NCBI GenBank assembly: GCA_964635365.1
Contig: CAZWRO010000004.1
Coordinates: 6,800 to 30,887, forward strand
DNA from: an uncultured bacterium
Lineage (GTDB): Bacteria > Armatimonadota > Hebobacteria > Hebobacterales > Hebobacteraceae
DNA: 24,088 nt
Reading direction: 5' to 3'
Below the pieces are notes generated by a model that had not been told where the DNA came from, did no database searches, and saw nothing but the letters and a program-made list of their open reading frames with translations. Shown here one piece after another: positions 3,221-18,885 of this stretch. Positions within the stretch are counted from its first letter, which is position 1; each line of letters starts with the position of its first letter. A program made the position numbers and the translations under genes.

Positions 3221-5641
3221 ATGGCTATGGCAGCCTGGGCGAGGATATCTTTTGTCTGTGGCCTGTTGGGTCTCTCCGCGCTCCAGTTCAGCGTTGGCCC
3301 CGGAACTGCCGCCGAGCTGACTGCTGACCGCGCGTGGGCCCGCGATCAAGTTGTGGTCCCCGTCTCGCCGGGCCTGTCCGCCCCGTCTTCCCGTTCCCAC
3401 GTCGTATCGGTCGAGTCGAAGGTGGTGCTGGCAGCACCGAACGATCCCGCTTACACCGACCTGATGGGTGAGCTTCACGTCCAGTGGCCCGCCCATGCGC
3501 TGAATCTCGTCGAGGCCTGGGGCTACTATCCTGGTTGGTACTTCGAGGCCTCGGGCCGTCCGCAAGAGGCGCCGATTGTGGCGGTCATCGACACGGGCGT
3601 GGACTCCAGCCACGCGGACTTCATGAATCCCGGCGCGACCAGCAGCGCGGCCTGTGACGGGGGGCAACTCATGCTATCGGCCGCGCGAAGTTTCCTTGTT
3701 GGAGATCCTGACCAGTACCAGGACGGCGCGGTGGATGAACACGGGCATGGGACGCATCTGGCGGGGCTGATTGCGGCCGGTGCGAACAACGGAGTCACGG
3801 AGGAGGGCGGCGTCGCGGGGCTGGGATATCCGGTGCGGCTGCTCCCGATCAAAGTGGCCGGCGCCAACGGAGTCGCGATGAACGTCGATGTTGCGGCGGC
3901 AATAGTGTATGCGGCCGACCAAGGCGCGTTGGTGATTCTGCTCGGGGTGGCCTGCCCCACTTGGTCACAGGTGGTCCAGGATGCGGTGGACTATGCGTGG
4001 GAGCGGGGCTGCTTTTTGGTGGCGCCGGCTGGTGTCGAGCCGGAGGAACAGCACATGTTTCCGGCGGCCTGTCCTCATGTGTTCGGTGTCGGATCTGTTG
4101 CGTCTGACCTGGCATTGGCCGGCTATTCGCCGGCGGGAGATGAGGTTGCGCTTGTGGGGCCGGGGGGTGACGAGATGATAGGGGTGTACTCGACGCTGCC
4201 GACCTATGCTTGTACGCTCAGGAGCCAGCCTGTCGGAGCTGATTACGGATGGCTGTGCGGCACGTCGCAGGCCGCGGCGCACGTGGCGGCGGCGGCCGGA
4301 TTGTATGCTGGGCTGGATGCTGGATCTCAGAGCGGTGAGCGTGACGGGGCCAGGATCTGGCAGGCGCTGCAGCGCAGTGCCACCGCGGTGGAAGGCGCCA
4401 CCGAAGGGACGTGGGACGAATTCCGTGGATACGGCTTGGTGTCGCCATCCGGGGTTCTCAAGGGGGAAGCGACAGAAGGCGCCGGGGGAATCGTTGGAAG
4501 GGTGTTAGCGTCGGGCACCGCGGCTGTGGGAGCCACGGTGACGGCCTACCCGGAGGGGGGAGGCACACCGGTGACAGCGGTGGCAAGGCGGCCAGCCGCA
4601 GCCTACCGCCTGGAAAATGTTCCCACTGGCACCTATCTAGTGAGGGCGGAGACGGAGGACTACACGGGCGAGTGGGAAGGGGTGGTGGTCGCGGGGCACT
4701 GCGATGTGCCGGGTGTGGATTTCCGACTTGCCGACCCTCCGGCGGGAGCGACGCTGATTGCGGCCGAGATCCCGGCGGCGGCCGTGCGCGGGGAGCGGTT
4801 GGAGGTATTGGTGAGGCTAGCGAATACGGGGGATTCGTCATGGCAACGCGCCGACGGGTACAGGCTGAGGCAGACCGCATGTGACAACCCGCTCTGCGTT
4901 GACCCCGCGGAGATGGACCTGGAGCCGGGTGAAATCGTGGCACCGGGGCAGTCGCGGACCTTCGTGGCCTCGTTGCCCGTTCGCGACACCTGCGGCTTCT
5001 ATGAGACAGCCTGGCAGATGTGCCAGCAGGGCGGCGCAGGTAGATTCGGGGAGGTTGCCGTGGGAACCGTGAGCGTCACCTCCTTTTTGGACGTCCCTGC
5101 GGATCATTGGGCGCTGGCGGCCATTGAGGCAGCGAAGGCCGCTGGATTGGTGTCGGGGTATGATGGACATCTGTATCATCCGGAGTGGCTCGTGTCCCGC
5201 GACCAGATGGCCGTCTACTTGGCAAGGGCCCTGGCCGGCGGGGACGCTCTGGTGCCGGCGGGGCCGGCTGCCTCGACTTTCGAGGATGTGTCGCCGGGAC
5301 ACTGGGCCTATAAGTACGTCGAGTATGTGCACGAGCGGGAGGTCGCGCAAGGATACTTGAACGGCCTCTACCATCCGGAGTACGTGCTCGACCGCGCGCA
5401 GATGGCGGTTTTCATTGCACGGGCAATGGGGGGAGGAGAAGGGGGGCTGGAAGGCTATGTGCCACCGGCGAGGCCGAGCTTTTCGGATGTGCCGCCGGAC
5501 TCGTGGGCCTACAAGCACGTGGAGTACATCAAGGGAAGCGGCGTGGTCGCAGGGTATCCGGATGGCTTGTACCATCCCGAGTACGAGTGCTCGCGGGATC
5601 AGATCGCGGTGTACATCGCAAACGCCTTCGGGATGGAGTGA
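3221..5641 (+). CDS. Secreted S8 (subtilisin-like) serine peptidase-family protein with carboxypeptidase-regulatory-like and NBR1/FW-type Ig-like domains and 3 C-terminal SLH domains
   Basis: N-terminal signal peptide; triad motifs VAVIDTG, HGHGTHLAG and GTSQAA; 'PNDP' mature-start motif; three SLH repeats (FxDVxxxxWA..G..YHPE...R.Q.AV..A) from 5081. Confidence 0.85.
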   Translation: MAMAAWARISFVCGLLGLSALQFSVGPGTAAELTADRAWARDQVVVPVSPGLSAPSSRSHVVSVESKVVLAAPNDPAYTDLMGELHVQWPAHALNLVEAWGYYPGWYFEASGRPQEAPIVAVIDTGVDSSHADFMNPGATSSAACDGGQLMLSAARSFLVGDPDQYQDGAVDEHGHGTHLAGLIAAGANNGVTEEGGVAGLGYPVRLLPIKVAGANGVAMNVDVAAAIVYAADQGALVILLGVACPTWSQVVQDAVDYAWERGCFLVAPAGVEPEEQHMFPAACPHVFGVGSVASDLALAGYSPAGDEVALVGPGGDEMIGVYSTLPTYACTLRSQPVGADYGWLCGTSQAAAHVAAAAGLYAGLDAGSQSGERDGARIWQALQRSATAVEGATEGTWDEFRGYGLVSPSGVLKGEATEGAGGIVGRVLASGTAAVGATVTAYPEGGGTPVTAVARRPAAAYRLENVPTGTYLVRAETEDYTGEWEGVVVAGHCDVPGVDFRLADPPAGATLIAAEIPAAAVRGERLEVLVRLANTGDSSWQRADGYRLRQTACDNPLCVDPAEMDLEPGEIVAPGQSRTFVASLPVRDTCGFYETAWQMCQQGGAGRFGEVAVGTVSVTSFLDVPADHWALAAIEAAKAAGLVSGYDGHLYHPEWLVSRDQMAVYLARALAGGDALVPAGPAASTFEDVSPGHWAYKYVEYVHEREVAQGYLNGLYHPEYVLDRAQMAVFIARAMGGGEGGLEGYVPPARPSFSDVPPDSWAYKHVEYIKGSGVVAGYPDGLYHPEYECSRDQIAVYIANAFGME
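5081..5632 (+). repeat. Three tandem SLH (S-layer homology) domain repeats within the S8 gene
   Basis: SFLDVPADHWA…YHPEWLVSRDQMAVYLARA; FEDVSPGHWA…YHPEYVLDRAQMAVFIARA; FSDVPPDSWA…YHPEYECSRDQIAVYIANA. Confidence 0.9.
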
Positions 5642-5708: not shown

Positions 5709-6536
5709 CTACTCGGTTTCCTCCATCGCGCGCCGAATCATCTCTTTTCGGAGTCGCTCGATTTCATCGTCGTTACCGGCGGCAAGTGCGGCGTCGAGCT
5801 GCTCTTCCAGCGAGGTCGGGAGATCGGCCTCCCGTGCCAGAAGTTCAGCCAGCGCGGCGAGATGTTCGAGCATCTGTGAGCACATGGACTGCTGATCTTC
5901 TTGGCTCTGTGTATAGCGGTCGGCGTGGCGCTCCTCGAACTGCTTGATGCTGCGTTGGGCACGGTAGAGCTCGGTGGCCGCGTGCTCTGCGTTGCCCTGC
6001 TCAATGTCCCACAGCGCCTGGGCGGTGGCGCGGTCCCGCTCGATCCAGGGCCACCATCTGAGGTAGCTCCATTTGGCCTCCTCGGCGGCGTCCGACTGGT
6101 CTATCAGGTTCCAGATGCCGAGGTTGTGCTCCGCGTCCTCGCGCGCCTGTAGGTAGTCCCCGAGCAGGAAGGCGAAGTTTCTGCGGACGTAGTACTGCCA
6201 GGACTCGTCTCGCAGCGCGGACTGCTCCTCGTCGCTCAGGCTGACCGGTTCGTCGCGACGGGAGGTGAGGTGGAAGTCGAGGAGGGATTCCCGGCCATAG
6301 GGGCGTTCGCCGTCCGGGCGGCCGTGGACTTCGTATTCCTGATTAATCAGGGCCTGGCCCTGCATCTCTCCCGTGGCGGAGAGTATGGTGCAGCCTTCGA
6401 TGAACGCAATGCGCTCACGCGCGAATCTTTCGACTCTGCCTATCAGGAGGTAGCGCGGGTCGCGGTAGAGGCGCTGGAGGTAGGTATGAACAGTGGAGGG
6501 TAGCCCTTCGATCTCTTGGTCGTCGGCTTCGTGCAT
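5709..6536 (-). CDS. Hypothetical helical protein with a C-terminal UVR (UvrB/UvrC) coiled-coil motif
   Basis: 'GRPDGERPYGRESLLDF' and 'QYYVRR…GDY..AREDAEHNL' resemble, from recall, an uncharacterised UvrB/C-motif family. The C-terminus 'SLEEQLDAALAAGNDDEIERLRKEM' fits UVR. ATG at 6536 follows a GGGAGA SD. Confidence 0.65.
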   Translation of the reverse strand: MHEADDQEIEGLPSTVHTYLQRLYRDPRYLLIGRVERFARERIAFIEGCTILSATGEMQGQALINQEYEVHGRPDGERPYGRESLLDFHLTSRRDEPVSLSDEEQSALRDESWQYYVRRNFAFLLGDYLQAREDAEHNLGIWNLIDQSDAAEEAKWSYLRWWPWIERDRATAQALWDIEQGNAEHAATELYRAQRSIKQFEERHADRYTQSQEDQQSMCSQMLEHLAALAELLAREADLPTSLEEQLDAALAAGNDDEIERLRKEMIRRAMEETE

Positions 6537-6648
6537 CACATCTCTCCCATCTGCGACGCCCACCCCCACCACAGAGCGTCGGCATCGCAGAATACGAGCC
6601 AGGTGCTCAGTGGGCCAGTTCGGCAGCCCGGCCTCGGGCTCCTGCGCC

Positions 6649-6677
6649 TTGACCCGGCCATATCCAGATGCTATTGT
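6649..6677 (+). promoter_or_regulatory. Putative sigma70-type promoter of the S55 protease gene
   Basis: TTGACC (6649-6654), 17-nt spacer, TATTGT (6672-6677) preceded by TGn; 32 nt upstream of ATG 6710. Confidence 0.5.
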
Positions 6678-6709
6678 CTGTGAACTTCGTTGTCCCGGAG
6701 ATTTTGCTC

Positions 6710-9700
6710 ATGATCCGTTCCTTGCGTGTTGGCCTGCTCTTACTCGCACTTATCCTTCTGGTGGCGCACCCTTGCCTGTCGCAGAGCAGGGCGGATATGT
6801 ACCCGCTTGACGAAGTGCGCGTGGGTCAGCGCGCGGTGGCCAAGTCTGTGTTCCGCGGGACGCGGATCGAGTCGTTTCATGTGGAGATCATCGGGGTTCT
6901 GCGCAAGTTCGACGGCACTCGGAGCTTGATACTTGGCCGCGTGCTGGATGGGCCGGTGGTGGCGAGGAACAGCGGGGTGATAGGCGGCATGAGCGGGAGC
7001 CCAGTTTACATTGACGGGCGCCTGGCGGGAGCGATAGCTCTAACCTGGCCGTGGAGCAGGGAGCCGATAGCGGGGATCACGCCGATCGAGGATATGCTGG
7101 CCGCGTGGCAGACCGCACCTTCGGACGGGAGCCAACCGGCGGCGGCCTCCGGGGGGGCGCTCATCTCTCCACTGCGGGTGGAGGATACGGTCATTCGACG
7201 GCTGAACGTGGCTCCGACTCCCCCGGTGGAGCCAGACCCACCCGGAGTGATGACACTCGTGCCGTTGGGCGGGTTCATGCAGGTGTCGGGGTTCAACCGC
7301 CGAGGTCTGGAGCGTGTTGCCGAACTGCTGTCCCCTTACGGGCTGCACGTGGTGCAGGGGCCGGGCGGAACTGAAGATCAATTGACTCCCGCGCTGGTGC
7401 CGGGTGCGGCGCTCGGAGCGCAGTTGGTCCGGGGCGATTTCGATATGACCGCGCTGGGCACCGTGACCCTGGTGGAAGGCGACCGCGTGCTGGGTTTCGG
7501 GCACCCGCTCTTCGAGCTCGGAGCGATCGATGTGCCGATGACCGGGGGTTATGTACACGACATACTGCCGAGTCTGCAGTTCTCGAACAAGATCATGTCG
7601 GCCACGCAGGTGGTGGGCCGGATCTACCGAGATCACCAGTGCGCCATCGCCGGCGTGCGCGGCGAGCAGGCGGATATGCTTCCGGTGACCATAGAAGTGA
7701 CGGATCGCGATAGCGCTCGGTCGCGCACATTCGAGATCGAGGTGGCACGAATACGTCGGCTATTGCCGTCTCTGGTTGCGACCTCGGTGGTGACGGCGGT
7801 CGATGAGACGCGCGGGAGGGTCAACCGCGGCACCGCGCGCTTCAGCATGGATATTGAGCTTGAGGGACGTCCCGCTCTGCATCGCGAGGACGCGGGATAT
7901 AGCGAGGGCGACGCCGCCCTGGCGACGCTGTCTTTGGTGCTCGGGCCCCTGGCGCTGTTCACCGACAACCAGTTCGGTGAAGTTAGGATGAATGACGTAA
8001 GGATTCACTTGGAGACCGAGGACGCGCGGGAGACAGCCGCTATCGAGCGGGTGACCGTGGCGCAATCGCGGATTGAAGCGGGCGATGAAGTGACCTTGAA
8101 TGTGAGGGTCCGGCCTTATGGGAGAAGCTCGGCGGAGGTGCCGGTGCAGCTCTCGCTGCCGCCCGACCTGCCAACAGGACAGGTGCGCGTGGTTGTGAGC
8201 GGGGGGGCCAGCGCCGACGAGGCACGCCAGGCGATCGGCGCGCCCAGGCCGCGCCCGATCTCGTTGGATCAGTTGGTGGACCGCTATGTGTCCGGGGATG
8301 GAGCATCGGATCTGATCGTCCAGGCGCGGCTGCCGCGGGCCGGGGTGTCGCTGCTGGGCGCGGAGCTTCCTCGGCTGCCAGTGGCGGCACAGCAGGCGCT
8401 TCGGGCGGTCAACCCAACTGATCTGCGTCCTGCGCCCTCGGTGCTTAAGGCCATCGTCCCCACGGAGTGGGTGCTGACGGGGCGGCAGCTGGTGACGCTG
8501 CAGGTTGAGAGTCCGGTTGCCGCCGGGGCGCCGGCCAGGCCGGAGGCGCCACCCGCGGAAGGACCACCAGAGCAACCGGAGCCGGGAGAGAACGAGGCCG
8601 GTTCGCACGGTGGAAGAGGTGACGCGGTCGAGGTGCGAGGCGCGGAGTTGTTGCCGGCGGTAATCGAGCTGGCCGGCGGGAACAACAGCCGGGGACGCGG
8701 GGGGCAGGCAGCGGAGGAAGAGGGTCCGGAGCCGCCCACGCGAGCGCCCGAAGTCTGGGTGCATCAAACGAGGTCTGACTTCGCCGGGGCCGAGACGGAC
8801 AACGTGGCGGTCGATGTTGACGGCGGGCTGTCGCTTTCGTTGTCTCAGGCCGAACTGGCGCGACTGCCGGCAGACGTGATATGGAGCGTCGCGGTGCACG
8901 ACGGTGAAGTCTATGTTGGCACCGGCTGCAACGGTCTAGTTTACAGACTGTCGGATGGCGGGGAGCCGGTGGAGTTTTTCGCCACCGGGGAGATGAACGT
9001 GCACGCGCTGGCCTTCGACAGCGAAGGCAACCTGTATGCGGCCACCTCGCCGGAGGGGAGGCTGTTTCGCATTGCGCCGGACGGAACCGGGCGACTGGTG
9101 TCCGACTCCGAGAGCGCCTATCTCTGGTGTCTCGTGATTGGCCCGGAGGAAACGGTCTATGCCGGCGGAGGCGCTCCGGCAAGGATCTACGCGGTCCGCC
9201 CTGACGGTGAGTCGGAAGTGTTGGCGGAGCTTCCGGCGGCCAACGTTCTCTCCTTGGTCCGGGGGAGTGCGGGCGAGCTATTCGCGGGCACATCTGAGGC
9301 CGCTGTGATTTATCGGGCTGAGGCTGATCGGACTGTGAGAGCGCTGTGTCAACTTTCGGGCACTTCAGTCGACGCTTTGGTCATCGATGAAGACGGCGAT
9401 CTGTATGCCGCGGCTTCGCCCGGGGGGAACGTCTACAAAATCCCAAGTGACGGTCTGGCCGATCTGTACTGCGAGACGGATCAGCAGGTAATCCACGGGC
9501 TGGGCGCCATTTCGGGCGGAGATCTGATTGTCGCAACGGGACCGGAGGGAATCTTGGTGCGCGCGGCGGCCGCGGGGGAACCGGAAGCGATCTTTCGTCC
9601 GGAAGCGGGGATTGCGACGGCCCTTGTCGTGAGCGATGGCGCGGTGTATGTGGGGAGCTCGGGGCCGTCCGTGCTGCGCAGATTTGGGCCGGGGCAGGCG

Positions 9701-10633
9701 GCTGTGGGGTCGGTTGAGTCGACGGTCCTCGATGCGGGGAGGCCGGCGCGCTGGGGGAGGGCGAACTTGACGGCCAGCGTCCCGGAGGGAGCCGAGGTGC
9801 GGGTCGAAACGCGGTCGGGTAACTCGCCGGACGCGGAAGACCACTGGAGTAGTTGGTCCCCCGTGATGCAGGAGGTAATAACCAGCCCGCCGTCGCGGTA
9901 TCTTCAGTACAGGCTGCGCATCGCCGCTTCCGTGACGGGGGTGACTCCGACGGTGCAGCAGGTGCGGATCTCTTATCGCTCTCAGAATCGTCCTCCGGCG
10001 TGCTCGTTGAGGGCCCCGGAGGCGGGAGATCGAATTTCCGGGACGGTTGACATGACGTGGCAGGCCCGGGACCCCGATAGGGATACTCTAAGCTATCAGG
10101 CTGCGGTTTCTACTGACCTTGCGGAAAGCTGGGAGGAGCTGAAGGCGGGTCTCACGGAAACCACCTATGAGTGGGATACGACCGAGAGAGACGATGGCCG
10201 CTACGTGGTTCGGATCACGGCCAGCGATGTCCGCAGCGTGCCGGAGGATCCTCGCACGGCCAAGGATACGGTGATCGTCTGGGTGGATAACACGGCTCCA
10301 CAGGTCATGCTGTTCAGGACATCGGTTTCTGTGGGGGAGGATCGACGGGTGCAAGCGACGGGCATGGCAAGCGATGCGACTTCGCCGATTCGCAGCGTGG
10401 AGTACCGGGTGGATGAGGGGGAGTGGAGTTCTCTGCCGCTGCCCGCCATAGAGGCTTCGCTGACGGACTTCTCCGTGGCTACCGACGCCCTTGCGGTCGG
10501 CGAGCACACGCTCGAGGTGAGGGCGTTCGACGGCGCCGGGAACCTGGCGACCGACAGCGTGCAGGTTACCGTCGCAGAGGGCACGTCGGAGTCTGGCGTG
10601 CAGGCCACAGGGGAGGAAGTGCGGGAGCCTTAG
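6710..10633 (+). CDS. Secreted SpoIVB/S55-type serine peptidase fused to a beta-propeller and Ig/FN3-like domains
   Basis: Signal peptide; 'GVIGGMSGSPVYIDGRLAGAIA' (SpoIVB GIVQGMSGSPII type); 'ALGTVT…GFGHP'; Pro/Glu-rich linker; repeated 'xxLAxDxxGxLYAxT/S..G.v.r' propeller blades; C-terminal 'DNTAP' and 'GEHTLEVRAFDGAGN' Ig domains. ATG 6710 chosen because a signal peptide follows directly. Confidence 0.8.
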   Translation: MIRSLRVGLLLLALILLVAHPCLSQSRADMYPLDEVRVGQRAVAKSVFRGTRIESFHVEIIGVLRKFDGTRSLILGRVLDGPVVARNSGVIGGMSGSPVYIDGRLAGAIALTWPWSREPIAGITPIEDMLAAWQTAPSDGSQPAAASGGALISPLRVEDTVIRRLNVAPTPPVEPDPPGVMTLVPLGGFMQVSGFNRRGLERVAELLSPYGLHVVQGPGGTEDQLTPALVPGAALGAQLVRGDFDMTALGTVTLVEGDRVLGFGHPLFELGAIDVPMTGGYVHDILPSLQFSNKIMSATQVVGRIYRDHQCAIAGVRGEQADMLPVTIEVTDRDSARSRTFEIEVARIRRLLPSLVATSVVTAVDETRGRVNRGTARFSMDIELEGRPALHREDAGYSEGDAALATLSLVLGPLALFTDNQFGEVRMNDVRIHLETEDARETAAIERVTVAQSRIEAGDEVTLNVRVRPYGRSSAEVPVQLSLPPDLPTGQVRVVVSGGASADEARQAIGAPRPRPISLDQLVDRYVSGDGASDLIVQARLPRAGVSLLGAELPRLPVAAQQALRAVNPTDLRPAPSVLKAIVPTEWVLTGRQLVTLQVESPVAAGAPARPEAPPAEGPPEQPEPGENEAGSHGGRGDAVEVRGAELLPAVIELAGGNNSRGRGGQAAEEEGPEPPTRAPEVWVHQTRSDFAGAETDNVAVDVDGGLSLSLSQAELARLPADVIWSVAVHDGEVYVGTGCNGLVYRLSDGGEPVEFFATGEMNVHALAFDSEGNLYAATSPEGRLFRIAPDGTGRLVSDSESAYLWCLVIGPEETVYAGGGAPARIYAVRPDGESEVLAELPAANVLSLVRGSAGELFAGTSEAAVIYRAEADRTVRALCQLSGTSVDALVIDEDGDLYAAASPGGNVYKIPSDGLADLYCETDQQVIHGLGAISGGDLIVATGPEGILVRAAAAGEPEAIFRPEAGIATALVVSDGAVYVGSSGPSVLRRFGPGQAAVGSVESTVLDAGRPARWGRANLTASVPEGAEVRVETRSGNSPDAEDHWSSWSPVMQEVITSPPSRYLQYRLRIAASVTGVTPTVQQVRISYRSQNRPPACSLRAPEAGDRISGTVDMTWQARDPDRDTLSYQAAVSTDLAESWEELKAGLTETTYEWDTTERDDGRYVVRITASDVRSVPEDPRTAKDTVIVWVDNTAPQVMLFRTSVSVGEDRRVQATGMASDATSPIRSVEYRVDEGEWSSLPLPAIEASLTDFSVATDALAVGEHTLEVRAFDGAGNLATDSVQVTVAEGTSESGVQATGEEVREP

Positions 10634-10651: not shown

Positions 10652-11395
10652 CTAGTGACGCCGCCCGCGGCGTCGAGATCGGAAGCCGCGGAAGGGTCGC
10701 GCGAACCAAGGTGGGTTGGGGGATGGCGTGGGTGACGAGCTGGTGAGGCGCACGTAGATATGCTGAGCCGTCTCACGATCTACGGCTATCTGGCTCTGCC
10801 CAAGGTCGAAGACGAAAGAGGGGAAGCGCTGCCGGAGCACGACGGGCGTACCCGGAACGGCCCCCAGGGAGAGCAACCGCTGTAGGATGTCGCGGCGCGG
10901 GGTCTGGAGATAGGCGATGACGCCGGTCTCGCCGGGCTTGAGATCCGCGAGGGATGAAACCACTGTCTGGGCGGCACGGGCACCCGCGCGGCAGCAGTCT
11001 CCCGGGGGGATGGGACTTCCGTGGGGGCAGAAGCGGGGATGGCCGAGCAGGGTGCAAACTTGGTCGTCGAGGCCCTTTCTGAGCAGGTGTTCGAACTTGC
11101 AGGCCGTCTCCGTGGCGAGGTTGTCGCTGACGTTGAGAACATCAACGAGGAGGCGTTCTGCAAGGCGCTCCCGCCGCAGCACCGAAGCGGCCTGTCGCGT
11201 TCCGGCGGCCGTAAGCGAGAAGCCCTCCGACTCTTGCTCGACCAGGCCGGCCTCCAGCAAGTCGCGCACAGTCTGACCGTCGGGCGAAGCATCGACGCCG
11301 TCTGGTGGAACCCACTTGTCGAGTTGCTCTTCCTCGGCCACGGCGAGGCTGGCGAGTAATTCCTCGGAGGCTTCGGTCAGCTCTATTTCGGGCAT
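10652..11395 (-). CDS. DtxR/MntR-family metal-binding protein with a degenerate N-terminal HTH and a C-terminal FeoA (SH3-like) domain
   Basis: 'LTAAG..A..VLRRERLAERLLVDVL', 'ACKFEH', 'LGHPRFCPHGSPIP' and FeoA 'LADLKPGETGVI…RLLSLGAVPGTPV'. Its ATG (11395-11393) overlaps the feoB TGA (TGATG coupling). The ORF-track extension to 12112 is spurious. Confidence 0.85.
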   Translation of the reverse strand: MPEIELTEASEELLASLAVAEEEQLDKWVPPDGVDASPDGQTVRDLLEAGLVEQESEGFSLTAAGTRQAASVLRRERLAERLLVDVLNVSDNLATETACKFEHLLRKGLDDQVCTLLGHPRFCPHGSPIPPGDCCRAGARAAQTVVSSLADLKPGETGVIAYLQTPRRDILQRLLSLGAVPGTPVVLRQRFPSFVFDLGQSQIAVDRETAQHIYVRLTSSSPTPSPNPPWFARPFRGFRSRRRGRRH

Positions 11396-13428
11396 CAGAT
11401 TTGCACCTCTAGTGCGGTCAGGATGAGATTCAGCAGCGCGCCCACTCCGAAGGCGAATGGCAGGATGAACCCGGCCACGGCCAGCGCAGTGCGGAGACCT
11501 CGCTCCTTCTGCATCACCAGGAATTGAGCGACACAGGGGATGAATAGCGTGATCGTCACCATGGCGACCACGAGCGGAACGCCGGATACGGCGCCGGCTG
11601 AATGGACGTCGAAGAGTCGGGCCGCGCCGTAATCGCGACGGAAGAAGCCGAAGAGAAAGGCATCGGCCGCAGCCTGGGGCAACCCGATGGCGGCCACCAG
11701 GGGGCGGAAAACGGAGAGGACCAGCTCGAAGATATGGGTGAGCTGACCGAGCCAGATCAAGACGCTGGCGAGCAGGAAGAGCGGGATGACTTCGATTGAG
11801 TACCACCGCAGCCTCGAAAAGGTCTTGACGGCGACGTTGCGCAGCGAAGGCGGTCGCAGGGGGGGCACCTCGACGTAGAAGCGAGCCGCCTCTCCCGGGA
11901 GAAGGCGAGCCGCCAGGAAGCCCGAGAGCAGGAACACCATTATTAGGACGCCGGCCCAGATGGCGAGGCCCAATGGATGCAGGGAGAGGAGTCCGAGGAT
12001 GACGCCGAGCTGGGCCGAGCACGGGATCGCGAGAGCAAGCAGGAAAGTAGCGATCAATCTCTCTCGCCGCGTTTCCAACACTCGCGTAACCAGGGTGGCC
12101 ATGGTGCCACATCCGAGCCCCAGGACGAGCGGGATGACGGCGCGACCGGAGAGACCTATGCGCTTGAACAGTCGATCGACGAGGAGTGCCAGGCGCGGGA
12201 GGTAGCCGCTGTCCTCAAGCACGGCGAAGGTCAGGAAGAAGGCGCCGACTAGAGGCAGCACGATGGCGAAGGCATAGCGCAGCCCCAGGGTGATGACGCC
12301 GAACTCACCGACGAACAGCGACGACCAGGTGGGATAGGGTAGCAGGTGCTCAACCCACGCGGTGAGGACCGGATTGATCCTCTCCCCGAATAGCTTCGCG
12401 TCGAGGAAGTCGACGAGTATTCCGGCCCCCAGTCGGCCAACGATCAGATAGAGACCGACGTAGAGGACGGCGATCAAGAGGGGGATGCCGGCAAGCGGAT
12501 GCATTGCCATCCGCCCCAGCACTTCCATGAAAGTCGCGCGCACCGGGCGCGGGCGCGCGACGACGACCTCATCTGCGAGGCGGTCGGCCGCTTTCTGTCG
12601 GGCGACAGCAATCGGGAATATAAGGGGCTGAAGGTACTGGGCCTCCGCGTCGGAGACGGCCTTCTCGATCTCCGGGATCGAGTCGGGATCGGTTTGCAGC
12701 ACACGCTCCCAGATTCCGGCCTCGCGCTGAAGTAATTGAAGCGCCAGGGCCCGCGCCGAGATTGCGTATTCCCCACGCAAGGTCGTCGTGATTCGTTCGA
12801 TCGTCGACTCAATGGGCGGCGGATATTCGACGGAGAAGTCGGATACAGACGGCAACGAGTCCGAGATCAACACGCGCAGTCGGTCCATGCCGAGGCCGAC
12901 GGCAGCCGCGGTGGCGACGACGGAGAGGCTGAGGCGGCGGGCCAAGGCGCCTAAGTCGACTTGCATGCCGGCCCGCGTGGCTTCGTCGATGATGTTCATG
13001 TCCAGGACTATGGGGAGTCCGGCCTCGATGAGCTGGAAGGTGAGCGGGAGCATGCGACGGAGGTTCTTCGCATCGACGACGTGGACGAGCAGGTCGGGCG
13101 GGTCGTCCAGCAGGAGGTCTCTAGCGACGCTCTCGTCCTGGGACAACGGGGTGAGGGAGTAGGTGCCGGGACTGTCCAGTACTTCGAGCAGAACGTGGCC
13201 TATGCGAGAGTGGCCACGGGCGACTTCGACGGTCGTGCCAGGGTAATTCGACACCACGGCATAGGAGCCGGTGAGCTGGTTGAAGATAACGCTCTTGCCG
13301 ACGTTCGGCGACCCGAAGAGGACCAACTTTCGGGCGGTGGTGGGCCCGGCGAGGGCGCAGCTATCGCAATCACAGCCGAGCGCCCCGCTCAGGAGTCGAC
13401 GGAAGAAGTGCAGTGCTCGCAAGATCAC
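11395..13428 (-). CDS. feoB: Ferrous iron (or Mn2+) transporter FeoB
   Basis: G1 GSPNVGKS, G2 NYPGTTVE, G3 DSPG, G4 NIID; membrane domain with 'LEDSGYLPRLA', 'LGLGC' and 'IPCSAQ'. GTG at 13428 lies directly after the upstream stop, with a GAGGG SD. Confidence 0.95.
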   Translation of the reverse strand: MILRALHFFRRLLSGALGCDCDSCALAGPTTARKLVLFGSPNVGKSVIFNQLTGSYAVVSNYPGTTVEVARGHSRIGHVLLEVLDSPGTYSLTPLSQDESVARDLLLDDPPDLLVHVVDAKNLRRMLPLTFQLIEAGLPIVLDMNIIDEATRAGMQVDLGALARRLSLSVVATAAAVGLGMDRLRVLISDSLPSVSDFSVEYPPPIESTIERITTTLRGEYAISARALALQLLQREAGIWERVLQTDPDSIPEIEKAVSDAEAQYLQPLIFPIAVARQKAADRLADEVVVARPRPVRATFMEVLGRMAMHPLAGIPLLIAVLYVGLYLIVGRLGAGILVDFLDAKLFGERINPVLTAWVEHLLPYPTWSSLFVGEFGVITLGLRYAFAIVLPLVGAFFLTFAVLEDSGYLPRLALLVDRLFKRIGLSGRAVIPLVLGLGCGTMATLVTRVLETRRERLIATFLLALAIPCSAQLGVILGLLSLHPLGLAIWAGVLIMVFLLSGFLAARLLPGEAARFYVEVPPLRPPSLRNVAVKTFSRLRWYSIEVIPLFLLASVLIWLGQLTHIFELVLSVFRPLVAAIGLPQAAADAFLFGFFRRDYGAARLFDVHSAGAVSGVPLVVAMVTITLFIPCVAQFLVMQKERGLRTALAVAGFILPFAFGVGALLNLILTALEVQI

Positions 13429-13429
13429 G

Positions 13430-14098
13430 CTAGCCTGTCCCTCGAACGGGCCGCACCCGAATCGCGGCGGCGGGCGCCGCACCAAGTGCGTGAGCCTGTC
13501 CGCCGACATCAACGACCAGCACCTCTCCGATGGATTCTCGCAGCTTTACCTTGACGCGACGACCGGGCAGCAGCTTACGCTCCGATAGGTAGCGCACCAT
13601 GTCCGACGACTCGTCGTCGAGGCGAACGATGGTGAAGGTTCGGCCCGGTGGGGCTTCGGCCAGGGAAATAGTGTGATCATCGACGGAGACGTCAATGGGG
13701 TGACCGTGAGGGCAAGCCTCCGGCCGGCCAAGGGTTTGGGCGATGCGATGCTCCAGCTCGGGCGATACCGCGTGCTCTATACGGCAGGCCTCGTCGTGAG
13801 CCTGCTCGAGGGGAAACCCGAGGAGGTCTGTGAGAAGCCGCTCGGCAAGTCGGTGTCGGCGGATCAATTCATGTGCCCGCAGCTGGCCTTTGGGGGTAAG
13901 CGATATGCGTCCGTAGCGGCGGTAGGTTATGAGTCTGAGGTCGGAAAGACGTCTGAGCATGCCGGTGACGGAGGCCGGCTTCACGTTGAGGTGTTTGGAT
14001 AGGCGTGTGGTGGAAACACCCTCAGGGCTGTGCTGAAGTCGCTCGATGGCTTCCAGGTACTCTTCCGCGCTGTCCGACAGTGGCTTGGGGGATGGCAT
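13430..14098 (-). CDS. DtxR/MntR-family metal-dependent transcriptional regulator with a FeoA domain
   Basis: 'AEEYLEAI…VKPASVTGMLRRL' wHTH, 'RRHRLAERLL', 'AHDEACRIEH', 'CPHGHPI' and a C-terminal FeoA domain. AAGGAG SD at 14110-14105. Confidence 0.92.
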   Translation of the reverse strand: MPSPKPLSDSAEEYLEAIERLQHSPEGVSTTRLSKHLNVKPASVTGMLRRLSDLRLITYRRYGRISLTPKGQLRAHELIRRHRLAERLLTDLLGFPLEQAHDEACRIEHAVSPELEHRIAQTLGRPEACPHGHPIDVSVDDHTISLAEAPPGRTFTIVRLDDESSDMVRYLSERKLLPGRRVKVKLRESIGEVLVVDVGGQAHALGAAPAAAIRVRPVRGTG

Positions 14099-14316: not shown

Positions 14317-17300
14317 CTACCGTACTTCTATCGTCACAGGCTCTGCGGTGGCCTCGATCTCGGGGTTGTAGTAGCGGTAGACCCGGGAGCTCGGCGTGGC
14401 GGCCCTCATGGGGAAGTTCGCCCGGAGCCGATAGGAGATGTCCAAGGGTTCTCGGGAAGCCAGGCGGTCGAGATAGATGATGATCTGGCGAGCCGCAATG
14501 GTGTACTTCTGGATGGTGCCTTCGTCCACCAGGCTCTGGAGGTCCTCGGCCAGCACCTGGAATCCGGGCGGGACGCCGAGATCGATCACGACCATGTTGC
14601 AGTCCCGCGGATCCTGGTTGACGACCCGGACGGAGGCGGTGACGATATCGTCAGTGGAAAGGGTCGTGCGGTCGTAGTCGACATCGATGGTCAGCAGCTC
14701 CTGGGCCGGCGGCCGGACCATCTCCCACGGGAGGTAGTACTTGGCGACGATTTGGTAGAGCGCGCTGCCCTCGCCGGTGATTGCGACGCGGACGTCGTTG
14801 GCGCCCGCGCGCACCAGCTCTCGAGCGTCGACTTGGCGCACCACGTCGTAGTCGTCCTGAGTGATGCGGAAGGAGCCAGCCTGCTCGCCGTTAACCTCGA
14901 CGGTGACCGTGGCATCGATCTGCTCGGTCGCGCGATGGAGCGAAAGGAGCAGCGCCTTCAGGGACCACACCGTCGCCTGGGTGGTCTGCCAGGTCCCGAA
15001 GCTATCCTTGGAACGGATCAGATAGGTGATGGCCTTGTTGGTGAGGCCGACGTGGCGTTCGGACTTGACCAGCGCGTAGGTCGCCAGGGCCGTGGTTTCG
15101 AGGTCGGCCGAGCCGTCCTGCGCGGAGGTGAAGGTCGGCGCTTGAGCCTGCCAGTAGGCGGCGCTTTCGTCGGCGATCGCCAGGCCGGCAAGGGCGTCGA
15201 CGACGCGGGTTGCGTTGGCGGAGTCCGGTGCGCCGCTGAGGTAGGCATTGGCGATCACGGCGAGGGTGTACGGGTCATCGACCTCGCGCCAGTGAGCGTC
15301 GAGGTAGCGGAGCCCGAGCGAGATTTCCTCTCCCTGGTAGCCGGATTCGGCCAGGGTCCAGGTGATGTAGGCCGTGACGCGCACGGTGTCGGTCTGACGG
15401 TTGATAACGCCTTCCGCGATGCCTCCTTCGTCACGCTCCCAGGAGCCGTCTTGTCTCTGCAGGCCAGCCAGCCAGCGCTGGGTGCGAGTGATGACGTTTT
15501 CGTCCACCTCGTGCACTCGGCTCATGTCCCGGAACAGCAAGAGCCCGTAGGCGGTGAGCACCTTGTGGGCCGGGGGCTGTCCGAACCAGGAGAAGCCGCC
15601 GCCGTCCACCTCGAAGGACAGGAGGCGTTGATAGCCGACGTTGATGTGCTGCTCGGCTTTCATTTGGATCTCGGGATTGGCCTGGTTGGTGGACCTGAAG
15701 TAGTCGAGCACCAGAACGTTAGGATAGGTGACGGAGCTGGTCTGCTCGAAGCAGCCGAACGGCATTCGCAGGAGCGAATCGAGGCCCTCAACGGCTTGGC
15801 TGAAGAGGCCCGGGTAGATCTTCACCAGGATGGTGGAGGCGTCCGGGATGGCCTGCTGCGGGAGGGTGACAGTCCGCTCCACGGTGCCTTCCAGGCGGTC
15901 GTTCCAGGTGTCTCGCTGTTCTTCGCCGTCGGGGAGCACCTCGATCTCGCGACGGATGGCATCGCTCAGCCGAGAGCCGCGGGCACGGACGGTGAGACGG
16001 TGAACGCCGATGCCGGTGGTCCGGAGGCGGTAGTAGACGACGCGGATGTCGGAGGCCGCGATGTCCAGCGACTTCTCGGCTTCGTCGTCTACGAGCTCGA
16101 ACCAGGGCTGAGTCTCCAACGCCAGATTGATCGTCTGGGGTTCCGGAAGGTAGTTGTAGACGGCGATGGGGATAGAGACCTCGTCGTTCTGCGTGAGGGC
16201 GACGGGGAGGTCGATGTCGATGAAGAAGTCCTGGAAGACCCGAAGGCCAGAGCTGGTGCTACCGAGCTGGCCGCGCTGGGAGGAGGCCAGGGCGCTCAGG
16301 CGCCAGGTGGTGATCGAATCGGCCATGTCCACCGTCACGGTTGCCTCTCCGCGCTGGTCGGTGATGATGGCCGGATTGACGTACATGGTCTCGGGGAAGA
16401 ACTGGCGCAAGCGGACTTGGGGTTGCCCTGGGGCTTCGGCGGACGCAGCTCCCTGGGCGACCTCTGATTCAGCCGCCGCCATGGGGGCGGCCACGCCTTT
16501 CTCCATGGCCATCATCGCGTCCAGGGCCACGACGCCTCCACCTCGGCCGAAGAAGCGGCCCACGAGTCCTTCGCGGGGCCAACGCGTGATGTTGCTAATG
16601 TCGTCGGAGGTCCGCCACTGGCCGTCGGGCCCGGCCGAATTTAGGGAGCACTCGGCCTGCCGCCATCGCACTCGGTAGGGATTGCCCCAGCGGTCGCGCA
16701 GGTCGTTGCGGTAGAGCAGCCCTTCTTCCACCAGCACTGAAATATCGGCCTCCGGCGACAGGTAGCGGTGGTGACGCGTATGGTACTGCTGGAGGGCGCG
16801 ATTGATCTTCTCGGCGTCTCTGGCGATGTCCCTCACCCAGGATTCCATCGCCTGCGCGAGGCGCTCCTGGTAAGTATTGACGGTGAGGTTGAAGGGATCG
16901 CGAGGCTGCGCGGCGGCGAAGAGGACGGCTGCGGCCCGCTGGCGAGTTGCCTCCGCCTCCGCCGGCTCGGGGGCTTCGAAGGGCAGTCGTCCGCTGACTA
17001 TGCCCTGGGGCGTGAAGCCGTGGATCTCGTAACGGGGGTGCAGGAGCTCACGCTCCAGAGCGAAGTACACTCGCTCCAGCCCGGGCTGCATCTCTTGGAG
17101 CGCGAAGACGCTTTCGTCAACGATGCTCACGCCGAGCACGGCGTGGACGGGGTTGCCTTGCTGATCGCGCACGGCGAAGGTCAGGCTGGCCGAATCGCCA
17201 GGTCGGTAGGTGTCTTGGTCGGGTCTGACCTCAACCAGGAGGTCGTTGGCCGGCTCCACGTAGAGAAGCCGGGTGCATCGGATGATGTTCTCGTCCGGCA

Positions 17301-18885
17301 GGATCTGATAGGCGTGTATCTCGAGCGTGCCGGACAGGTCGTGGGTCAGAGGGAGTTCGAAGTGCGCCCGCCCGTGGGAGATGTCAACGGTGCGGGTGAG
17401 CACGGTCTGGTTGTCGCGGATGACATCGACGTAAGTCGTGCCGGCCTGCTTGGTCGATATCACGTCGAACTGAACAGAGGTGCCGACGGGGGCGATGGAA
17501 CGATCTCCGCGGAGAATCAGGGCCTGCGCGGCGGTATCGGTGGGCAGGTCGATATCGCGGCTGACGCGATGTCCGGCGCTATCCACGACGTCGACGTGCA
17601 TTTGAACTCCGCCGCGCGGAGACGTGATGCGAGCGGCGAAGATGCCGGCCTGGTCGGTGGCGCCTTCGAGTACGGCCGGCGCCGCGGCTTCGCCGGCCGG
17701 CTGGGTGCTGACGGCGACGCGCGCACCGGCCGCGGGGTTTCCGTCCGGGGACGAGATGAGCAAGTAGACAATGTTCTCGATGTTCGGCTTGAGGTCACCG
17801 GACTCCGGGACGGCGGTGATGATGAGAGGAGCCGTGGCAACCGGAGCGGTGTGGACTATTCTCTCGGTGTGATCGGCGCGGTCGGTGACCTCCACGTCGA
17901 GCTTCACGAAGGCATTGCCCTGCTCCAACGGCTGTCCGACGAAGTAGGTCGGCAGGTCAGTCTCGAATCGGAAGCTCCCGCTCTCGTCCGTGCGGCCTCG
18001 GATCTCGGCCACCTCGTGGAAGGCGGTGTCGAAGGTCGAGACGGTGATCAATACCTCGGATTGGGAGGTTGGCTTGCCGAAGAAATAGTCAGCCTGGATC
18101 CTTCCGGTGAGTCGATCTCCCGGGAGGTAGTAGGGTCGTTCCGTGGTGAGATTCACGCGGAACTTGGGCAGCACGTAGCGCCTGACGTTGACCGTCCGCT
18201 CGGCGCGGCCGTCCTCCATCACGGCACGCACCGTGTAGGCTCCGAAGTTGATCTCGTCGGCGAGGATGAATTCGGCGGAGGCGACGCCAAAATCAGAGGT
18301 CTGAAGCTGCCGCTTGAAGACCTTGTTGCCCCTGGAGTCATCCACTTCCAGAGTGATCCCCGTGCCAGCGGCCGGCTGGAGGGAGGGCCGCTGCAGGGCC
18401 AGCGCGCGAAGGTGGATGGTCTGTCCCGGTTGGTAGAGGGGCTTGTCTGTAGTGAGCAAGATCTGCGCTTCGCGCGTGATGCTAATGGAGCGCTCAATGA
18501 CGTCGATTCCCAGGGCCGAAACTACTCGCACGGAGAGGTCGTACGCTCCGGGCGGCAGCTCGGGGACTCTGAACGAAGCGTCCACTGTGCCGGCGTCCAG
18601 GGCGCCGGTGAACAAGCGCTGAGGCGCCATGCGCAGGTCGGGGTCGGTGGGCGAGAGGGTGACATGGACGGCCCCGCGAACCGGTTCCCCGGTCTCGTGA
18701 TTGGTAACGATGATCCGCAGGGAGGCCGGGCCGCCGGCAAGCCATTGCGATTGGCCTCGGAGGACAGTCTGGAGGGGGGACAGGTCATCCGAAGAGCGGG
18801 AAGTGGCGGCAAGGGCAACCGACAACGCCACGCCGATCACGACAATCGCTAGCCACTTAGTCAAGAGACGACTGTTCTTGCTCAC
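14317..18885 (-). CDS. Alpha-2-macroglobulin-family thioester protein (secreted, complement/TEP-like layout)
   Basis: MG2 'LLTTDKPLYQPGQTI', 'VSIVDESVFAL', post-bait 'RQFFPET…DSITTW', thioester 'MPFGCFEQ' (15753-15742), alpha/alpha TED 'GGFSWF…LTAY' and receptor-binding domain 'NMVVIDLGVPPGF…RVYRYYNP'. GTG start with AAGGAG SD; Sec signal without a lipobox Cys. Confidence 0.92.
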   Translation of the reverse strand: MSKNSRLLTKWLAIVVIGVALSVALAATSRSSDDLSPLQTVLRGQSQWLAGGPASLRIIVTNHETGEPVRGAVHVTLSPTDPDLRMAPQRLFTGALDAGTVDASFRVPELPPGAYDLSVRVVSALGIDVIERSISITREAQILLTTDKPLYQPGQTIHLRALALQRPSLQPAAGTGITLEVDDSRGNKVFKRQLQTSDFGVASAEFILADEINFGAYTVRAVMEDGRAERTVNVRRYVLPKFRVNLTTERPYYLPGDRLTGRIQADYFFGKPTSQSEVLITVSTFDTAFHEVAEIRGRTDESGSFRFETDLPTYFVGQPLEQGNAFVKLDVEVTDRADHTERIVHTAPVATAPLIITAVPESGDLKPNIENIVYLLISSPDGNPAAGARVAVSTQPAGEAAAPAVLEGATDQAGIFAARITSPRGGVQMHVDVVDSAGHRVSRDIDLPTDTAAQALILRGDRSIAPVGTSVQFDVISTKQAGTTYVDVIRDNQTVLTRTVDISHGRAHFELPLTHDLSGTLEIHAYQILPDENIIRCTRLLYVEPANDLLVEVRPDQDTYRPGDSASLTFAVRDQQGNPVHAVLGVSIVDESVFALQEMQPGLERVYFALERELLHPRYEIHGFTPQGIVSGRLPFEAPEPAEAEATRQRAAAVLFAAAQPRDPFNLTVNTYQERLAQAMESWVRDIARDAEKINRALQQYHTRHHRYLSPEADISVLVEEGLLYRNDLRDRWGNPYRVRWRQAECSLNSAGPDGQWRTSDDISNITRWPREGLVGRFFGRGGGVVALDAMMAMEKGVAAPMAAAESEVAQGAASAEAPGQPQVRLRQFFPETMYVNPAIITDQRGEATVTVDMADSITTWRLSALASSQRGQLGSTSSGLRVFQDFFIDIDLPVALTQNDEVSIPIAVYNYLPEPQTINLALETQPWFELVDDEAEKSLDIAASDIRVVYYRLRTTGIGVHRLTVRARGSRLSDAIRREIEVLPDGEEQRDTWNDRLEGTVERTVTLPQQAIPDASTILVKIYPGLFSQAVEGLDSLLRMPFGCFEQTSSVTYPNVLVLDYFRSTNQANPEIQMKAEQHINVGYQRLLSFEVDGGGFSWFGQPPAHKVLTAYGLLLFRDMSRVHEVDENVITRTQRWLAGLQRQDGSWERDEGGIAEGVINRQTDTVRVTAYITWTLAESGYQGEEISLGLRYLDAHWREVDDPYTLAVIANAYLSGAPDSANATRVVDALAGLAIADESAAYWQAQAPTFTSAQDGSADLETTALATYALVKSERHVGLTNKAITYLIRSKDSFGTWQTTQATVWSLKALLLSLHRATEQIDATVTVEVNGEQAGSFRITQDDYDVVRQVDARELVRAGANDVRVAITGEGSALYQIVAKYYLPWEMVRPPAQELLTIDVDYDRTTLSTDDIVTASVRVVNQDPRDCNMVVIDLGVPPGFQVLAEDLQSLVDEGTIQKYTIAARQIIIYLDRLASREPLDISYRLRANFPMRAATPSSRVYRYYNPEIEATAEPVTIEVR

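Follow-up and report, generated by a model that had tools for sequence, protein, structure and literature searches.

A SpoIVB-related exported protein family in which the two barrels of a chymotrypsin-type serine protease appear to be reversed along the chain

Few enzyme scaffolds have been studied as intensively as the chymotrypsin fold, and to our knowledge all MEROPS clan-PA families place their catalytic residues along the chain as His, Asp and then Ser (or Cys). Here we describe a gene located in a window of 24,088 nucleotides, i.e. the whole stretch of DNA analysed, from contig CAZWRO010000004.1 (assembly GCA_964635365.1) of an uncultured member of the Armatimonadota whose metagenome-assembled genome comprises 2.43 Mb at 81.7% completeness. 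The gene product probably belongs to the chymotrypsin (clan PA)/SpoIVB (S55) lineage, as an exported serine endopeptidase whose two beta-barrels are reversed along the chain. Its closest described relative is SpoIVB of Bacillus subtilis (MEROPS S55, PF05580, TIGR02860, structure 9LNF). The two exported proteins have in common the Ser-bearing barrel with its GMSGSP loop and closing helix, at about 25-29% identity, and more weakly a GT.T ... G.GH ... G.I..(D/N)...I.G pattern in the His-bearing barrel. Unlike SpoIVB, the window protein shows the barrels in reversed order, is devoid of a PDZ domain and carries a domain of about 85 amino acids (aa) between the barrels. Both barrels find their best structural neighbours among the HtrA/DegP/DegQ/DegS proteases (MEROPS S1C, clan PA; Z 5-6.5), which are likewise envelope serine proteases with accessory substrate-binding domains, although the activity of the window protein is a predicted one; they differ from it by the order His-Asp-Ser and by C-terminal PDZ domains, and there is no sequence similarity beyond the fold.

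The gene consists of a single open reading frame (ORF) at window positions 6668-10633 on the forward strand (+) and encodes 1321 aa, which are numbered here from the ATG at 6668. An earlier note, made from the sequence alone, had proposed that the two halves of a SpoIVB-type domain are swapped in this protein. The peptides that it quoted are all present, and the codons at 6947, 6992 and 7502 that it singled out specify D94, S109 (in GGMSGSPVY) and H279 (in LGFGHP), respectively, with H279 exactly 170 codons past S109. The Ser-bearing barrel with its closing helix (6797-7117, +; aa 44-150), delimited by homology to the C-terminal barrel of SpoIVB/S55, indeed comes first, and a predicted six-stranded, trypsin-type barrel bearing both the His and the Asp (7400-7705, +; aa 245-346), recognized by its model (predicted local distance difference test, pLDDT, 90) and by clan-PA matches, comes second. 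Only a signal peptide precedes the Ser half in the protein, and the neighbouring upstream ORF (5709-6572) is located on the opposite strand (-), which leaves no coding room for a barrel ahead of the Ser half.

The Ser half is homologous to the C-terminal barrel of SpoIVB. The window protein passes the gathering cut-off of Pfam PF05580 (Peptidase_S55; 34.5 versus 25 bits, E = 2.9e-8), with a match restricted to aa 47-124 and to model positions 115-191 of 210. The match to TIGR02860 is restricted to model positions 303-377, and with 29.7 bits against a cut-off of 305 the protein fails this SpoIVB equivalog model. At the sequence level, residues 223-308 of the SpoIVB structure 9LNF (numbered by position in the deposited chain, whose first residue is SpoIVB residue 101) match aa 49-137. 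A profile-profile comparison of the whole module with true SpoIVB using hhalign (32 family versus 6 SpoIVB sequences) placed aa 44-175 on the C barrel and tail only (probability 98, E = 1.3e-13), and with a larger set of 263 versus 33 sequences the Ser half alone (aa 47-146) aligned to the SpoIVB C barrel with E = 7e-19. For neither of the two profile sizes did hhalign yield a collinear alignment of the whole module to SpoIVB over both halves, in agreement with the swap that had been proposed. In the AlphaFold model of aa 1-420 (pLDDT 86.3), aa 37-155 superpose on the C-terminal barrels of TEV protease, HtrA/DegP/DegQ and SpoIVB (Z 5.7-7.4; VIA), the 9LNF range 313-423 being aligned to barrel 1 with Z 5.7. 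Foldseek superposed barrel 1 and 9LNF with a root mean square deviation (rmsd) of 2.4 Å over 103 columns (probability 1.00), and the Swiss-Prot entry of SpoIVB, P17896, matched aa 44-145 with an rmsd of 2.7 Å and 27% identity. Fold matches of the whole module to DegP and NMA111 had rmsd values of 17-29 Å and are not meaningful, the real alignments covering one barrel only.

Modelled alone, aa 236-345 of the His half form six strands (pLDDT 90.1), and when barrel 2 was searched against 48,161 representative chains, clan-PA proteases with middling Z scores of 4.1-7.2 made up about 40 of the 50 best structural matches, among them Spl, V8, NAPase, alpha-lytic homologues, DegQ/HtrA/Deg, and the 3C, norovirus, astrovirus and NS3 proteases; the remaining matches were mostly MreC and PilZ barrels. 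A trypsin-type six-stranded fold of the second segment is supported by these models, and together with barrel 1 it gives the pair of six-stranded Greek-key barrels that characterizes clan PA, albeit at middling Z values. In the models, H279 follows the third strand and D322 lies where strand 5 meets strand 6. These are the strand positions occupied by His57 and Asp102 in chymotrypsin, and the topology of barrel 2 thus argues for its equivalence with the N-terminal barrel. With the larger profiles, the best hhalign match of the His half in full-length SpoIVB was also the N barrel (79 columns, score 23.9, P = 0.008), in an alignment that pairs GTVT with GTLT, FGH with LGH, which puts H279 on the catalytic His, and VGRIYRD..AIAG with IGDIQKN..GIYG. 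Compared with the SpoIVB N barrel alone the His half scored 22.7 (P = 0.002), a value reached in 1 of 300 column shuffles, whereas lower scores were obtained with the SpoIVB C barrel (13.6) and with the family's own Ser half (12.4). The separate alignment of the two halves to SpoIVB called for in the earlier note is thus clear for the Ser half on the C barrel, while for the His half the alignments point to a weak link with the N barrel that would be in register on the catalytic His. The best HMMER match of the His half, the 3NJG group of chains named 'Peptidase', had E = 0.18 over 25 residues and was treated as chance.

Conservation was counted in an alignment of 263 relatives. The proposed nucleophile Ser109 of the GMSGSP loop (6992-6994, +), which aligns with the serine of the same motif in SpoIVB, is found in 262 of 262 relatives aligned there, and the proposed general base His279 of FGHP (7502-7504, +), aligned with the catalytic His of SpoIVB, in 263 of 263. 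The same holds for Asp322 (7631-7633, +; 263 of 263), the proposed third member of the triad. Also invariant are G107, M108, G110 and P112 of the GMSGSP loop as well as G264 and T265; T267, F277, G278 and K308 are nearly so, and so is Asp257 of GDFD (7436-7438, +; 258 of 263) in the turn between strands 1 and 2 of barrel 2. Since the invariant acid D322 sits in the His barrel, the order along the chain is Ser-His-Asp (S109, H279, D322), which departs from the clan-PA order. In contrast to the invariant Asp of the family, true SpoIVB has the Asn of its conserved KNT motif at the position of D322. As judged from the hhalign alignment with the SpoIVB N barrel, the barrel-swapped family may keep a canonical acid that SpoIVB lacks, and the KNT Asn may bear on the non-canonical triad of the SpoIVB crystal structure (PMC12502668).

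The whole module was modelled with a predicted template modelling score (pTM) of 0.82, which is suggestive of a defined domain arrangement. When the two barrels were modelled as separate chains, the interaction score ipSAE was 0.39 versus 0.00 for the best control. Among solved complexes, 58 of 80 attained the ipSAE mark, as did 2 of 110 mismatched pairs; with a score of 0.60 or less it was attained by only 7 of these 80 complexes and by both of the mismatched pairs that passed. The modelled interface consists of aa 105-112 (including S109), 263-268, 275-279 (including H279), 305-308, 321 and 323-328, the latter flanking D322, and these residues coincide with the invariant patches of both barrels. 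In a mean-field direct coupling analysis (DCA; 261 sequences, effective number 207), the pair of G106 in the Ser loop and N307 in barrel 2 ranks first among all inter-barrel pairs.

How did this arrangement originate? We regard a circular permutation as likely, on the basis of the weak sequence resemblance of the His half to the SpoIVB N barrel and of the topology of barrel 2. An S55-like ancestor cut at its inter-barrel linker, with the old termini joined via the inserted domain, would be the most economical origin. Several observations weigh against the reading as a whole, i.e. a barrel-swapped protease of this origin. The isolated His barrel aligns best with the C-terminal rather than the N-terminal barrels of clan-PA proteases (Spl, DegQ/HtrA, norovirus and 3C proteases), and 9LNF is absent from its top 50 structural matches. 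The hhalign probabilities of the N-barrel link are low (5-14%), and an HMMER profile of the His half recovered neither SpoIVB from the PDB sequences nor PF05580 from Pfam. The interface enrichment of the DCA signal is marginal (3 of the top 10 and 10 of the top 50 pairs versus 12% expected), the two-chain complex test lends weak support to a packing of the barrels that is itself modelled, and proteolytic activity of the family members is something that we infer. The same barrel order might also have arisen if the second barrel was recruited independently, or if a duplicated C-type barrel gained the His and the Asp later. Its similarity to the N barrel of SpoIVB would then be convergent or reflect the general fold only. 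With the small profiles, the His motif fits the GSP loop of SpoIVB as well as its GH loop: the N barrel scored only 17.7, a value reached by 5 of 200 shuffles, versus 19.7 for the C-barrel control, and the sole alignment obtained for the whole protein, which paired GHP with GSP, was rejected as spurious. However, the larger profiles favour the N barrel (22.7-23.9 versus 13.6), the shuffling result pointing in the same direction, and the N-barrel alignment keeps its register across four motifs, namely GT.T, G.GH, K and G.I..D/N...I.G. An internal duplication search detected no similarity between the family's own two barrels. In addition, both barrels of every PA protease resemble each other, and a preference for C barrels at Z 5-7 is thus a poor discriminator. 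We therefore consider an independent or duplicated second barrel rather unlikely, though the most credible of the alternatives.

The other alternatives concern the active site. The module might be a non-catalytic, protease-derived binding or scaffold domain, i.e. a pseudo-protease comparable to MamO or to the lectin-like trypsin domains of Umb, and indeed MamO is among the structural neighbours of barrel 2, together with Umb particle subunits, whose trypsin domains are degenerate. Such proteins, however, typically lose their catalytic residues, whereas Ser, His, Asp and the Gly residues of the oxyanion loop do not vary among 263 divergent relatives drawn from many phyla, which makes this explanation very improbable. 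Even less credible is a triad of Asp94, Ser109 and His279 in the order Asp-Ser-His, as assumed in the earlier note by analogy with SpoIVB. Asp94 (6947-6949, +) does align with Asp363 of SpoIVB, 15 residues ahead of the Ser, and earlier genetics, as cited in PMC12502668, had assigned a catalytic role to Asp363. In the crystal structure, however, SpoIVB Asp363 is about 24 Å away from His236, and the authors doubt its catalytic role (PMC12502668). In the barrel-swapped family the position is Asp in 116 of 263 relatives, Gly in 95 and Ser in 38, so that more than half of them have Gly, Ser or Asn instead of Asp. The SpoIVB positions Asp363 and Thr393 are thus not kept in the family, the former being variable and the latter occupied by Ala. 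Asp94 is probably not catalytic, and the assignment of the acid in the earlier note had to be replaced by D322.

Overall, we lean, with a modest preference, towards a natural circular permutation of the clan-PA fold that has given rise to an active Ser-His-Asp protease, which would be represented by thousands of sequence clusters across many phyla, most of them diderm, and would form an obligatory pair with a propeller/Ig partner in the envelope. In the layout that we consider probable, the signal peptide is followed by barrel 1 (aa 44-150), which carries Ser109 as the nucleophile and GMSGSP as the oxyanion loop, by an alpha/beta insert of about 85 aa and by the His279/Asp322 barrel (aa 245-346). 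The models suggest that the two barrels would face each other, with the loop of Ser109 brought up against those of His279 and Asp322 to form the Ser-His-Asp triad. As a PDZ domain is missing, substrate selection would likely be supplied by a beta-propeller/Ig protein, which is encoded by a separate, translationally coupled downstream gene in most phyla and is fused to the C terminus of the protease in this Armatimonadota genome. Our best guess for the function is a role in protein processing in the envelope or outside the cell. An 'S55 domain-containing protein' co-eluted with BamA after cross-linking in Acetonema longum (PMC13018214); its membership in the family described here is not confirmed.

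The proposed partnership is based on gene organization. Outside the Armatimonadota, most members in the fetched loci are 560-660 aa long, and at 48 loci a same-strand ORF of at least 600 aa is located downstream of the protease gene, at a distance of -52 to +256 nt and mostly of -4 to about +40 nt. Blastp showed that 44 of these 48 downstream ORFs are homologous to the window protein: 42 align over aa ~695-1300 (E = 1e-39 to 1e-73), and two align over only about 225 residues (E = 1e-26 to 1e-35). The separate partner ORF has about 660-770 aa and often overlaps the protease gene of about 600 aa by 4 nt (loci L010-L082). In the window protein the corresponding propeller and Ig-like part (8750-10576, +; aa 695-1303), which is defined by these blastp matches, contains Pfam hits to Reg_prop, Big_7 and, weakly, SGL. 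It is preceded at the fusion joint by a Pro/Glu/Ala/Gly-rich linker evident from the sequence (8588-8749, +; aa 641-694), the blastp alignments to separate partners starting at about aa 695. Single proteins of 1290-1470 aa were found in Armatimonadota members and in one member of the Obscuribacterales. The homology of the downstream ORFs to aa 695-1303 indicates that the window gene is a fusion of a conserved and often translationally coupled gene pair, which argues that the protease and the propeller/Ig protein act together.

The family is large. An exhaustive phmmer search with aa 1-420 retrieved 5715 clusters at 50% identity (E up to 1e-3), 1605 of them at E up to 1e-30. The relatives are 31-93% identical to the window protein over aa 1-420 and carry the automatic name 'Peptidase S55 domain-containing protein' in the databases. 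AlphaFold DB and ESM Atlas models deposited under this name hold the same module (template modelling, TM, scores 0.72-0.89). In a word-index search, full-length relatives of about 1300 aa were found in Armatimonadota, a few of them named 'SpoIVB peptidase S55 domain-containing protein' at NCBI. The matches listed in a genome scan (at least 600) include members of the Armatimonadota, Acidobacteriota, Planctomycetota, Gemmatimonadota, Latescibacterota, Spirochaetia, Verrucomicrobiota, Obscuribacterales and Bacillota, the latter being represented among these matches by Negativicutes such as Pelosinus and Propionispora. The window protein conforms to the layout of this family: behind the signal peptide, the Ser barrel is followed by the insert and the His/Asp barrel within a core of about 600 aa, and the invariant Ser, His and Asp are present. 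In contrast to SpoIVB, whose role lies in the sigma-K checkpoint of endospore formation, the barrel-swapped family also occurs in phyla that do not sporulate, and in genomes of Negativicutes its members are found alongside a true SpoIVB. Five Bacillota genomes (Negativicutes and others) encode, in addition to a true SpoIVB (409-506 bits, above the TIGR02860 cut-off), a family member of about 610 aa whose match to TIGR02860 is limited to positions ~289-398. This side-by-side occurrence indicates that the two represent separate paralogous lineages. The genome from which the window derives encodes a second barrel-swapped paralogue with the same Ser-then-His order (contig C2, 29698-32913).

The stretch between the barrels (7118-7399, +; aa 151-244) consists of a linker and a small inserted alpha/beta domain (aa ~156-235), as deduced from the model and from the alignment of relatives. 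According to the model, this domain of about 85 aa is composed of four strands, one helix and one strand. The entire stretch comprises about 95 aa here and differs in length among relatives, which is shorter than the insertion of about 120 residues given in the earlier note. The absence of a PDZ domain stated there was borne out: Pfam detected no PDZ family in the window protein at E up to 1, and neither a profile search of the PDB nor hhalign against SpoIVB gave a signal for a PDZ remnant in the insert. The best PDB profile match of the insert was the designed protein Octarellin (E = 0.016). From the swap and the lack of a PDZ domain the earlier note had deduced a different, and so far hypothetical, activation mechanism.

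A combination of a serine protease with a beta-propeller is found in tricorn protease and prolyl oligopeptidase, in which the propeller may filter or present substrates. The catalytic folds of these enzymes are unrelated to the one described here, and in the present family the propeller is usually the product of a separate, coupled gene. Circular permutation is well documented among papain-like peptidases, i.e. NlpC/P60, LRAT and PPPDE (PMC10318531). These enzymes are a precedent for an altered order of catalytic residues within a protease superfamily, but they have a different fold, are of the Cys-His type, and a helix rather than a whole barrel has been moved. The literature check suggested in the earlier note turned up no description of a permuted trypsin/chymotrypsin fold or of a permuted S55 domain. 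If the permutation is real, a large natural family would demonstrate that the chymotrypsin fold tolerates a swap of its barrels. It would also explain why automatic annotation sees half an S55 domain in these proteins, which may as a consequence be scored as lacking the catalytic His, and it would offer a point of comparison for the debated triad of SpoIVB. Furthermore, it would define a widespread and so far unstudied pair of protease and propeller in the bacterial envelope.

With respect to the remaining parts of the gene, translation probably starts at the ATG at 6710 (M15 of the long ORF), giving a protein of 1307 aa, because an identical database protein has exactly this length and the relatives begin at the corresponding Met. 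A GGAG sequence is located at 6697-6700, 9 nt upstream of this ATG. The promoter-like site TTGACC-17-TATTGT (6649-6677, +), a match to the consensus only, overlaps the earlier ATG at 6668. The predicted Sec-type signal peptide (6710-6784, +; aa 15-39) was read from the sequence by its basic start and Leu-rich core, and the model contains a helix at aa 10-32. Downstream of barrel 2, the rest of the conserved core of about 600 aa (7706-8587, +; aa 347-640), whose short form is defined by the relatives of 560-660 aa, consists of an alpha/beta domain followed by beta-rich domains; aa 347-640 have no Pfam match.

Upstream of the gene, an exported subtilase (Peptidase_S8) of 806 aa with three C-terminal SLH domains is encoded at 3221-5641 (+), directly upstream of the divergent 287-aa ORF (5709-6572, -) that lies between the two protease genes and has no Pfam match. 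Downstream, at 10652-14098 (-), a FeoB gene is flanked by two ORFs encoding fusions of a DtxR-type repressor with FeoA; the listed ORFs 10652-12112 and 11395-13512 overlap, which indicates that one of the starts is probably later than listed. Further downstream, at 14317-18885 (-), a protein of the alpha-2-macroglobulin type is encoded (1522 aa), with MG2, bait-region, A2M, thioester (TED) and receptor-binding domains, whose aa 679-769 resemble protein G (pseudopilin) of the type II secretion system. A protease inhibitor of this type is thus located about 4 kb from two large, exported, predicted proteases.

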